This document shows positions 49,721 to 64,000 of a DNA stretch of 64,000 nucleotides, piece by piece. The DNA is taken from the NCBI GenBank assembly GCA_044892525.1, contig CM097885.1, positions 33,048,001 to 33,112,000 of the forward strand, written 5' to 3'. The stretch is from Schmidtea polychroa. Its lineage: Eukaryota. A program made the position numbers and the translations under genes. The number at the start of each line of letters is the position of its first letter. The first letter of the stretch is position 1. A model generated the notes under the pieces. The model was not told where the DNA came from, ran no database searches, and saw nothing but the letters and a program-made list of their open reading frames with translations.

Positions 49721-49861
49721 ATTTATTAATGTATATTATTAGTATAATTTATATAATCAAAGTAGATGGATTGGGCACCGCTAGAACAGGACTCCGCTGG
49801 CACAATACCCCCCCCCCCCGGGCGTAAAAATTTTTTCTAAGTCTAAAAGTACATTTATTTT

Positions 49862-50280
49862 TCAAGGTCAACTGTAGAACAAAGACATATGACTCATCAA
49901 GGTCATTGAAACAAAGACCATGACTCATCCTATGACTCATTAAATTTTCAAGGTCAACTGTAGAACAAAGACATATGACTCATCAAGGTCAATATTTTTT
50001 CAAGGTCATTTAAACAAAGACCATGGCTCATTCAAGGTCATTCTCAAGGTCATATGACTCATTCAAGGTCATTATCAAGGTCATATGATTCATACTATGA
50101 CTCATCAAATTTCTCAAGGTCAACTGTAGAACAAAGACATATGACTCATCAAGGTAAAAAAATTTTTCAAGGTCATCTGAGTCATCATGTGACTCACCAA
50201 GGTCATTTTCAAGGTCGCGTGACTCACCCAAGGTCATTCCCAAGGTCAGATGAGTCATCGCGATGAGTCATCAAGGTCAT
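49862..50280. repeat. Subterminal array of YCAAGGTCA and TGA(C/G)TCA motifs
   Basis: By eye about 15 YCAAGGTCA and about 12 TGASTCA in ~420 bp, built from duplicated units such as caaggtcaactgtagaacaaagacatatgactcatcaaggtca. Confidence 0.9.
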
Positions 50281-50785
50281 ATTATTATTTTTAAAAATAT
50301 TATTATTTTTAAAAATATTATTATTTTTATTATTATTTTTAAAAAATATTATTATTTTATTTTTAATTTTTTAAAGGTTCCCGCCAACGAGAACTATTCA
50401 TCAATAGCTCATATTAAAGCTCAATCCAAGACCTTTCGAATTAGCCATATATCCTGTTACTCCGATTATTAGTTCTAAAGATATTATTATTATTATTATT
50501 ATTATTATTATTATTATTATTATTATTATTATTATTATTATTATTATTATTATTATTATTATTATTATTATTATTATTATTATTATTATTATTAATATTA
50601 TTAGTATTAATCTATATACTCCGAGTCTATCCGACAAAATATTTTGTCCCCCTATGGGTAATGCTCACAAGGGTACTGCTCACGCTCAACAACTCACAAG
50701 GGTATTATTAAACAAATCAACAAAACATACATTTATTTAAACAATAAAATAATGTAAAATTAACAAAGGTAAACTAAATATTGAT

Positions 50786-51435
50786 TTACATGTATATAGT
50801 ATGATATTCATTAATCAGTGTTGAACAGGCTTGACACTTGTGAACATTCTTCTCGTGACACTTAGAACAAACAATTACGTGACCACGCGGTAAATACAAA
50901 ACCGAAACTTGATTTTCTTTACAAATTGAACAAGTTAAATACCTTCTCTTAACATCGTTCAGTTTTTTCGTTAGCTTATTTTTAATCAAATCGGCTTTTG
51001 TTATCCATTCATAAATCAATCTACTATATCCCGGTTTCAACCTTAAATACATACAACTCCAAAAGTATTCATTCATTGAATCGTTGTTTACCGTTATTTT
51101 TTCTAAATGCATTAAATAACTAGATAACTTTAAAATAGATTTATCATAATTAAATAAATCCTTCAAATATTCAATAGAGGAATGTTTGAAAATTTTTAAA
51201 ATATTTATAATTTGCTTATCATGATTTAAGTATCATAATTATTTATAAAATCTTCAACTGTATTGTTAAAAAATTTCGATGAACGCTTATCTTCGGAATA
51301 GGTTGGACTTAATTTTTCTTTATTTCTAGTAGGACTTCCTTGCTATAAATGTCATATATAAAAATATTGACAAAATAATAATGTTACCAAATGATTTACA
51401 CATTCATATTCATCAGTTATATTTGTAGAAATCAT
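50786..51435 (-). pseudogene. IAP-type C-terminal RING finger protein of the Polinton (predicted two exons, decayed)
   Basis: CSIC..LPRGH..CSKC..CQAC, with the third Cys reading Arg (CGT); predicted ATG at 51435, 45-nt GT-AG intron 51343-51387 holding an in-frame TGA; 1-nt frameshift near 51230. Confidence 0.65.
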
Positions 51436-51967
51436 CAGTAATAAATTTCTTAATGACTAAATTACTTTTGTTTTTACATTTATAAAAATTGAGATAGCCA
51501 ATCAAATTAGAGTTTTCAAAATGTAGAAATTGTAACCATGGTTGAACCTTCAAATGTGTAAGTAATATCATATTGTATAACAATAATAAGCATGACTAGT
51601 ACCCTCGCAACCAGTTGAAAGTTTTATTATTATTATTATTATTATTATTATTATTATTATTATTATTATTATTATTATTATTATAATAAGAGAGATGTAG
51701 TTGCATGCTCACTGCAAACTACTGTTAGAAATTATTTTCTCGTATACCAAATATAAAAACATTACAAGTTCTCAAAAATAAAAATTTTTACCAATAATAT
51801 CCTTTCTATGCTGAAACATTTTCGATAATTTTATATGAAAAATATAATGTTTAAACATAAAAAGAATCGTGAAAACTATAACGAGTTTTCAATAAAATAT
51901 ATACATTATAAAAGAATACAAATCAATAAAAACATTTTTTTTTAAAAAGATATATTAATATATCACA

Positions 51968-63052: not shown

Positions 63053-63110
63053 TACAACAAGAAGATTTAAAATTAAATTTAATGTCGGGCAATGAAGGAT
63101 TAGCACCCAT
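62883..63110 (-). CDS. Small overprinted ORF with N-myristoylation consensus
   Basis: Starts just after the pX-like stop; MGANPS (G2, S6) and SSCC; overlaps the integrase 5' end in another frame. Confidence 0.45.
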   Translation of the reverse strand: MGANPSLPDIKFNFKSSCCNGEDLDEPRRRSRFRWSGKIKQKSSEFEKRNPEVVIRSACVQFEQTNAERISNKSV

Positions 63111-63113
63111 TGT

Positions 63114-63647
63114 TTATGATTGATTTCCTACAACCCCACCTAATAATGATAATGCCAGAGGTATCAATGCACCAATAAATCCACCTTGTTGTTTATATAT
63201 AATTTTTCTCATTTGCTTACGATTTTTATTATTTACTAAAGATAATAAAGGTTTCCTATGTTTGCTCAATAAATGCTTTTTTGATTTACTGATTTTAATT
63301 TTGCCTTTGACTACTTTAAGTATAATATTGAGTAAATCATCGACAACAAAGTTTGGGAATGATTGCAATATATTCATTCTTTTCATACTCGGAGCCTTTA
63401 ACAATGCATTAAAAAATGGAAAACTGCGATGATTTTTAACTACTTTTTTACAGGTTTTACGAGTTTTACGGGTTTTACGTTTAGGTTTAGGATTTTTCGA
63501 AATAAGATTCATTGCAGAAAAATCTTCAGTTACAAGTTTTTTAGACGGTGTATAACTAGTTGTTGGTGGAACTTTTGGAACTTTAATACTCTTTCTAATA
63601 CTTTTTCTTAATTTCCTAATATTTTTCACCCTTGCTTTTAGAAACAT
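63114..63647 (-). CDS. Basic core protein, adenovirus pX-like
   Basis: Lys/Arg-rich body; C-terminus QQGG|FIGALIPLALSLLGG resembles adenovirus pX MRGG|ILPLLIPLIAAAIG. Confidence 0.72.
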   Translation of the reverse strand: MFLKARVKNIRKLRKSIRKSIKVPKVPPTTSYTPSKKLVTEDFSAMNLISKNPKPKRKTRKTRKTCKKVVKNHRSFPFFNALLKAPSMKRMNILQSFPNFVVDDLLNIILKVVKGKIKISKSKKHLLSKHRKPLLSLVNNKNRKQMRKIIYKQQGGFIGALIPLALSLLGGVVGNQS

Positions 63648-63665
63648 TATTATTCATAGAGGTTT

Positions 63666-64000
63666 TCAACTTTGTTTATAAACCATGGCACCTTTTGGGT
63701 TGAAAATATCTGTTTTTACTCGTAAATCATCGGGACATTGTTGTGTGAAATCAAGAAATATATATCCATGAGGTATTTTTGTAGCATCTTGAAATGCACT
63801 GATAAGAAAATTACGATTGTTTGGGTATGCTTGACGTGCAAGAAAATCAATCACTGTTGCATCTCTAGGATTCTTGAAAATATCTAAATATTGTACATTT
63901 AAATTACGTGTTCGATGTGCCCCACCTTGATGAAATAGATTTTGTGTTATGAAAATAACTGTTACACCGACATATCTGCTGATCTTTGTAAATAAATTAT
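63666..64000 (-). CDS. A32/FtsK-like packaging ATPase, C-terminal part
   Basis: Open from the window edge: NLFTKISR..VTVIFITQNLF..RTRNLN..IFKNPRD..FLARQAYP..DATKIPHGYIFLD. Confidence 0.88.
   Translation of the reverse strand, partial: NLFTKISRYVGVTVIFITQNLFHQGGAHRTRNLNVQYLDIFKNPRDATVIDFLARQAYPNNRNFLISAFQDATKIPHGYIFLDFTQQCPDDLRVKTDIFNPKGAMVYKQS

Follow-up and report, generated by a model that had tools for sequence, protein, structure and literature searches.

The window analysed here is a 64,000-nt stretch of Schmidtea polychroa contig CM097885.1 (assembly GCA_044892525.1, positions 33,048,001 to 33,112,000 of the forward strand). Positions 49761–64000 of the window hold the left four-fifths of a complete Polinton/Maverick element of 18.3 kb, which runs on to window-equivalent position 68093 in the neighbouring stretch L031, and several genes of this element are interrupted by short GT–AG segments. 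Comparison with sister copies and with more distant relatives indicates that the segments are real and likely spliced. We propose with good confidence, on the strength of this comparison, that the genes for the protease, the integrase, the RING protein and the polymerase pPolB are transcribed by host RNA polymerase II (Pol II) and spliced by the host major spliceosome, the capsid and ATPase genes being plain open reading frames (ORFs). An initial annotation had listed six such segments. All six exist on the minus strand, at or beside the places it gave; those in the integrase (62587–62664, 78 nt), the RING gene (51343–51387, 45 nt) and an acidic region (34, 43 and 46 nt) were confirmed without change.

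Results and discussion

A lone GT..AG pair is weak evidence in sequence of 70% AT. Each segment was therefore tested by comparison, and the case rests on conservation. As in U2 spliceosomal introns, the GT and AG ends are kept while the insides change. Position and phase are kept in diverged relatives for the protease intron and the long pPolB intron described below, and among subfamilies for the integrase intron. Intron length is independent of frame in the pPolB leader, the protease and the RING gene, the integrase segment being the exception. The protease, RING and pPolB frames have no usable start unless the segments are removed. The sister loci were drawn from the best-scoring few hundred copies; they are close kin, and counts of loci are not independent trials. 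The initial annotation had named the conservation of GT, AG and position in sister copies as a check on its reading, and they are conserved (58 of 60 integrase loci and 29 of 29 protease loci). Features in the window lie on the minus strand unless stated otherwise.

The probable protease intron

The adenain-type protease provides the strongest single case among the segments. Its product exceeds the PF00770 cut-off and keeps the His, Asp and Cys; in 21 sequences His and Asp are invariant and Cys is nearly so. Exon 1 contributes the ATG and two further bases (58552–58556), an intron of 40 nt in phase 2 (58512–58551) follows the fifth coding base, and exon 2 occupies 58169–58511. The acceptor is a tandem AG, and the initial annotation, which gave the intron as 58515–58551, had chosen the first. 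In the 29 sister loci that match the pattern (30 were examined) the second AG is always kept, and the first reads AA in 11, which rules it out as the acceptor. The intron is therefore 58512–58551. The segment annotated earlier is real; it ends three bases later than was proposed, and the product begins one residue shorter. The resulting N-terminus has the length of that in unspliced homologues. The same donor and acceptor were observed by eye in 30 further loci, which are partly identical places.

The intron is also found at the same site outside this family. In six of 14 metagenomic loci ATG-NN is followed, at an identical codon position, by GT, 37–43 AT-rich nucleotides of differing sequence and AG. 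These six represent four distinct lineages at 50–60% amino acid identity, with 28–32% GC. The remaining eight (34–42% GC) are uninterrupted there, with an ATG in frame. Two other families of the same genome carry the intron as well. In a protease tree of 20 rows the intron state changes once, by a single event that may be a gain or a loss. The database ORF calls P0121 and P0148–P0150 of this protease either run on across the intron or have a late start, and cluster look-ups of seven proteins gave no spliced form. Such calls bear out the earlier contention that ORF-only annotation misses part of the proteome, here the starts of the protease and RING genes and a portion of pPolB.

The probable integrase intron

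The rve integrase starts from ATG 63052 (exon 1, 62665–63052) and continues in an exon with a chromodomain (61958–62586). The 78-nt segment between them, GT(ATT)23AATTTAG (62587–62664), is in phase 1 and falls two codons after the second catalytic Asp. On the read-through frame PF00665 (E 3e-4) and the chromodomain are found below cut-off. The 120 listed database homologues, at up to 70% identity, all carry PF00665, and not one has an insert in the TDxGxEF motif.

Only two of the 60 sister loci depart from GT..AG at this site; one reads GT..AA and the other is rearranged. Inserts in the sister loci measure 57–186 nt, two of these loci having a solo long terminal repeat (LTR) inside, and loci chosen for short inserts gave 21–42 nt (13 of 14 resolved). 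Copies identical across the integrase exon all carry the segment. A second subfamily (~91% nucleotide identity) has a less repetitive insert of 42 nt. All 30 loci of other families (73–80% nucleotide identity) lack the insert and show a bare AG/GT or GG/GT (the slash marks the site), and the site is bare and uninterrupted in the metagenomic relatives L127 and L134 too. A codon alignment of the integrase exons of the intron-bearing subfamilies gave dS 0.20–0.40 and dN/dS 0.12–0.18; the integrase has therefore been under selection after the intron was gained. The intron is likely a younger gain, common only to subfamilies at ~88–92% nucleotide identity. The earlier statement that the lineage depends on host splicing goes too far as worded; comparison, rather than RNA, speaks for it, and for the integrase it does not extend lineage-wide.

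It is quite unlikely that the integrase segment remains unspliced, as a microsatellite encoding poly-isoleucine, tolerated or gene-killing, in a family moved in trans by intron-less families. The length is a multiple of three and stop-free in 55 of the 60 loci, the 42 nt of the second subfamily are likewise a multiple of three and free of stops, and the segment is pure (ATT)n, a tract that occurs 10 times in the window. Intron-less integrase families are present in the same genome, and some copies have an insert of 21–24 nt, which is probably too short to splice. Read-through would, however, place 7 to 62 hydrophobic residues two codons past the catalytic Asp, where none of the 120 homologues has any; a variable poly-isoleucine beside the active site makes read-through unlikely. 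The dN/dS of the exons after the gain is unlike that of a dead gene, and the inside varies between constant GT and AG ends. We thus prefer to regard the segment as an intron.

We note that L101 and L102 have a solo-LTR-like insert of ~1 kb (TG...CA) in this intron and are possibly one place assembled twice. Locus L096 was considered as an intron-less integrase copy and rejected, its upstream exon being replaced by unrelated sequence. A short repeat, ATTTAGGTA, around the intron hints at an origin by duplication and was not counted, as it is mostly splice consensus. The exon at 27921–29174, which from its translation we take to belong to a host G-protein-coupled receptor gene of biogenic-amine type, has a probable intron donor at 28031 that also opens GT(ATT)21; the next exon of this host gene was not found.

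The putative pPolB leader and a probable long intron

The acidic region was initially annotated as a separate gene with three introns. It is likely instead that this region forms four 5′ exons of pPolB and that a seventh intron, of 1,268 nt and missed earlier, joins this leader to the pPolB body. Exon 1 (57666–57717) starts from ATG 57717, ~60 nt behind a TATAAA box at 57778. It is followed by intron 1 (57632–57665, 34 nt), the 63-nt exon 2 (57569–57631), intron 2 (57526–57568, 43 nt), the acidic exon 3 (57421–57525), intron 3 (57375–57420, 46 nt) and exon 4 (57240–57374), which is acidic and has T as its last base. All three introns are in phase 1. Exon 3 contains IIISDDDDD, which we take to resemble a SUMO-interacting motif. 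The probable long intron (55972–57239, phase 1, GTAAG...TAATAG) leads to the body exon (51968–55971), with an N-terminal Cys/His domain, a low-complexity linker and the polymerase (PF03175, E 6e-15, above cut-off). For the full pPolB of L127 PF03175 is not listed, although it is 45–54% identical.

In sister copies the GT and AG of the three short introns are kept while their lengths and insides vary. Some copies duplicate whole exon-plus-intron units of the leader; the leader introns are alike through such duplication and are of low complexity. The leader was parsed with a frame-blind rule, which resolved 29 loci, 22 of them as far as the fourth donor. All exons are stop-free and all junctions in phase 1 in 17 of these 22. 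The 71 leader introns (27–54 nt) split 21/33/17 over the three length classes, and 67 of 71 later leader exons are multiples of three.

The fourth donor, T/GTAAG at 57239, is present in 28 of 30 further loci and has no near acceptor. The sister polymerase frame opens at the AG of window position 55972 with no earlier Met (1,135 residues are open in L140), and between two diverged polymerase types similarity starts exactly at this AG. The body has no ATG ahead of the conserved N-terminal motif. The fourth donor is the only one of the four to end in T, giving a Cys codon at the junction; this codon is TGC in one polymerase type and TGT both in the other and in family C, a family of the same genome with a pPolB ~53% identical and a different three-exon leader. 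In L122 and L127, relatives without this split, a conserved Cys lies a few residues after the start codon (N-terminal similarity scores 78–102, shuffles reaching at most 50). Among 28 database relatives, 11 by visual count have a Met two to five residues ahead of the Cys here. Only the 57239/55972 junction supplies the conserved Cys near a start, and the seventh intron is therefore likely. Its length varies from 690 to 1,268 nt among 13 sister loci. In L122, independently, an open pPolB frame is reached through five 5′ introns, all in frame and differently placed.

It is rather unlikely that the acidic exons encode a small protein of their own, with a transcript that ends, or reads to a stop, within 55972–57239 and with pPolB started separately or only from the Met of exon 4. 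Reading past the last donor meets a stop within ~25 codons, the long segment holds AATAAA signals, and different families have non-homologous leaders. A Met lies within exon 4, four codons short of the donor, at the spacing found in unspliced relatives. Even so, without the 57239–55972 splice pPolB would have neither the conserved Cys nor a start codon. Moreover the read-through frame shifts with a (TA)n tract that varies among copies, the TATA box precedes exon 1, and exons 1–4 form a single frame in the 17 of 22 loci. The reading in which the leader belongs to pPolB is preferred; a short acidic product and a spliced pPolB could coexist as isoforms.

Some side observations concern this gene. 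In L127 pPolB is encoded on the other strand, starts from an ATG of its own and lacks leader introns. L141–L143 have the same protease, leader and RING genes as the window copy and a clearly different pPolB body, a pattern that suggests module exchange at or within the long intron. A unit of ~55 nt, aagagagatgtagttgcatgc..., flanked by (ATT)n, recurs in the long intron (56280–56480) and downstream of pPolB (51590–51730). The C-K-I-Y reading past the last leader donor hints at an origin by duplication; it too is mostly splice consensus and was not counted.

The RING gene and accessory genes beyond the window

RING exon 1 comprises 16 codons from ATG 51435 (51388–51435) and exon 2 (50786–51342) encodes a C3HC4 RING (PF13920). 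The phase-0 intron between them (51343–51387, 45 nt) contains an in-frame stop. Among sisters it measures 45–48 nt and separates the only upstream Met from an exon of 184 residues. Exon 2 is frameshifted after 38 codons in this copy; 18 of 30 loci have it open for 184 residues. A single tandem array accounts for seven of the 30. At G000:C2, ~7.86 Mb, seven tandem copies of the RING region (L069–L075) lie ~1.07 kb apart.

Two further introns are probable beyond the window. A Bcl-2-like gene in L031 (~2550–3087, minus strand) matches PF00452 weakly (E 0.02, on exon 1 alone) and has a hydrophobic C-terminal tail. A phase-0 GT–AG segment of 44 nt lies just before WIEANGGW, a BH2-like motif. The gene was found in five of nine stretches examined, the segment being present in all five. 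A small acidic gene (L031 ~2065–2480, plus strand) has a phase-1 GT–AG segment of 41 nt after a few codons, which is kept in sisters.

Weighing the case for splicing

We regard it as very improbable that every segment reflects decay or slippage of AT-rich sequence in dead copies, with GT and AG ends arising by chance. Sequence of 70% AT readily yields GT..AG segments. The frame-blind rule gives 0.03–0.56 matches per gene on shuffles, and it fired inside three coding stretches (the pPolB body, the penton gene and integrase exon 2); the protease and RING segments escaped it. This copy is, in addition, broken in three genes. Decay would not, however, explain position and phase common to relatives from other samples at 50–60% amino acid identity, intron lengths that ignore frame beside exon lengths that keep it, or the presence of the segment in all copies identical over the integrase exon. 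For the protease and the leader, decay is already contradicted.

Together with the matches of the rule on shuffles and in coding stretches, the frame and the shortest inserts of the integrase segment and the Met of leader exon 4, several further points weigh against splicing. Branch support for the split between intron-bearing and intron-less proteases is 83/81, and the root is unsure. The search for RING homologues gave one near-identical protein only and no outgroup for that intron. That leader exons 1–3 are on the same mRNA as pPolB is something we infer. Sequencing runs X1, X2, X3 and X8 were compared on 57150–62612, with the RING intron, the long intron and the integrase donor outside this range and with zero coverage of the leader in X2 and X3. 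No splice joint was present in X1–X3 among the 15 joint rows listed (of 128); X3 record 15 runs unspliced across the protease acceptor, and X1 shows coverage within the protease intron.

Depth in X1–X3 tracks that of run X8 (Spearman 0.67–0.86), and X1–X3 may be DNA. One loose end in X1 (4 contigs) lies exactly at the donor of leader intron 3, 57421, and by eye resembles the start of exon 4 more than intron sequence; this donor is GT in 30 of 30 genomic loci. The loose end hints at splicing, and could also come from an intron-less DNA copy of an unsampled subfamily.

Proposed expression and origin of the introns

In the scheme that we favour, Pol II would transcribe the genes from TATA-containing promoters and the host U2 spliceosome would excise the introns. 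Translation of pPolB would begin at ATG 57717, pass through the four acidic phase-1 exons and continue across the 1.27-kb intron into the polymerase body. The introns would pass on with the element whenever it transposes, instead of reflecting damage to one copy, and would have been gained at different times. The protease intron is common to relatives at 50–60% amino acid identity, and the pPolB leader junction extends to a second family at ~53%. The integrase intron would be a recent gain at an AG/GT site, later filled with the host's common (ATT)n repeat. No special regulatory role would be required for any of them. Introns were found in the enzymes and accessory genes, and none was detected in the capsid, ATPase, pX-like or basic ORFs; the split between enzymes with accessory genes and structural genes is suggestive.

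The element and its copies

The left terminal inverted repeat (TIR) of 326 bp (49761–50086) is 94.5% identical to the right TIR, which the initial annotation had expected beyond 64000 and which was located at window-equivalent 67769–68093. The 6-bp target-site duplication AATCAA precedes the element (49755–49760, plus strand) and is repeated after the right end, at window-equivalent 68094–68099 in L031. The element ends AGTAG...CTACT, and AG...CT ends are a Polinton/Maverick character. It thus has the TIRs, the length (15–25 kb) and the 6-bp duplication of Polintons/Mavericks, and its gene order agrees with that of L127 and L134. Polinton core ORFs are described in the literature as intronless, and here sister copies have interruptions in the genes for the protease, the integrase and pPolB; this is a variant character and no bar to membership.

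The host genome (781 Mb, AT-rich) contains many young copies of the element. A 287-nt integrase query gave at least 40 matches, all 40 of those listed at 100% identity, and a query of 128 amino acids gave at least 150, all 150 listed at 98–100% identity; these copy counts are lower bounds. The family is a young, high-copy and recently active Polinton/Maverick. In planarians Polintons become de-repressed upon PIWI knockdown (PMC8532177). As the initial annotation had described, this particular copy is decayed in three genes. pPolB has four breaks (three frameshifts and one in-frame stop), the penton gene is broken and carries a hAT-type insert, and the RING gene is frameshifted. The capsid, protease, integrase, pX-like and ATPase frames are open.

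The TIR contains internal AAGGTCA and TGACTCA repeats. AAGGTCA and TGACTCA/TGAGTCA are numerous across the TIR region (49850–50290), and presumably they resemble nuclear-receptor half-sites and AP-1 sites, respectively. The decayed pol region of a Gypsy-like LTR retrotransposon (46732–49548, minus strand) adjoins the Polinton.

Genes without introns

The probable major capsid protein (58584–59804) is an open frame with no intron. By features it scored 0.97 against a DJR-like cluster, 65% of whose members have PF21738, with a recognition value of 2105, below the reliable level; there was no Pfam match above cut-off and no match in a PDB sequence search. Among IMG/VR viral contigs no confirmed relative was found for the capsid or the protease. 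The small ORF at 59801–60169, open and uninterrupted, we take from its position to be pX-like and membrane-active. The probable minor capsid (penton) gene (60162–62012) was assigned by position and synteny only. It has a frameshift near 61520 and is interrupted at ~60410–61195 by the hAT-type fragment, which has a Spin-doc zinc finger and a CAGGGGTGCCC end. Contigs of other copies skip this fragment, and the relatives L126 and L127 each have two tandem penton-like genes.

A basic ORF resembling a core protein (63114–63647) is open and intronless. The packaging-type P-loop ATPase is present in the window as its 3′ part (63666–64000), and the whole frame of 222 residues is open once read into L031. 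Walker A is present and the gene is syntenic in L127 and L134; no family-specific model matched it. Head-to-head with the ATPase, beyond the window, lies a compact TBP-like gene (L031:365–826, plus strand; PF00352, E 5e-14), which also occurs in the relatives L127, L128 and L133–L135 and in two other families of the genome. The ORF adjoining the right TIR (L031:3175–3678, plus strand) has hydrophobic N- and C-termini and a coiled-coil middle, and looks like a secreted or membrane-anchored protein.

Comparison with known systems and implications

In the main text on vertebrate Mavericks (Barreat and Katzourakis 2021, PMC8097293), 134 intact elements are described with intronless ORFs and no introns observed. 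These elements share with ours the TIRs, the 6-bp duplication, pPolB, the rve integrase, the adenain protease, the ATPase and the probable major and minor capsid proteins. Here, in contrast, the protease, integrase, pPolB and accessory genes have introns, and TBP-like, Bcl-2-like and RING genes are added. The nematode Mavericks described in the text of Widen et al. (bioRxiv 10.1101/2022.07.12.499685) likewise have intron-containing genes within an animal Maverick. There, however, it is cargo of host origin that has the introns, and the core genes are described as lacking them, whereas here core genes are split. Spliceosomal-type introns are also described, in the main text of PMC11957031, for Maverick/Polinton-like proviruses of dinoflagellates. 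Those are introners, that is, intron-generating transposon copies, mostly gained after integration; the introns here are of low complexity, conserved in position across lineages and inherited with the element. Group I introns are described for cryptophyte elements in the literature searched.

For the animal-associated adintoviruses, Starrett et al. (2021, PMC8502044) report homologues of Bcl2 and IAP, together with 'Oncoid' ORFs lying upstream of PolB. The main text of that paper contains no 'splic' and no relevant 'intron', and the main text of the pPolB-domain paper does not mention splicing. In our element, unlike the adintoviruses so described, the acidic ORF upstream is likely part of pPolB itself. 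In the literature searched, spliceosomal introns inherited within the core genes of animal Polintons were not described, although they may have been annotated before.

Our element can be compared, as a working analogy and not as membership, with adenovirus. In the adenovirus E2B mRNAs for the polymerase and the preterminal protein, the start codon is in a distant upstream exon that is joined by host splicing. A related protein-primed polymerase would thus have a distant spliced start exon in both. The present element differs in having four acidic phase-1 exons, introns of 34–46 nt and a leader that differs between families, and it integrates.

Annotation of Polintons proceeds one ORF at a time, with interrupted frames taken for decay. 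If the introns are real, intact elements have been counted as dead and the N-termini of proteases and polymerases have been mis-called. Polintons and adenoviruses would then also share a dependence on the host spliceosome. With many copies of both intron-less and intron-bearing integrases in a single genome, the family offers a rare dated series for intron gain. More tentatively, the lineage may be a splicing-dependent nuclear virus, in the manner of adenovirus, with an exon-shuffled polymerase leader, a protease intron kept across hosts and new (ATT)n introns still being minted at AG/GT sites; the integrase intron would be one of these gains, intercepted between sister families. If so, splicing would gate the enzymes of replication, integration and maturation and not the capsid, and the element would be limited to hosts able to splice introns of 35–50 nt.

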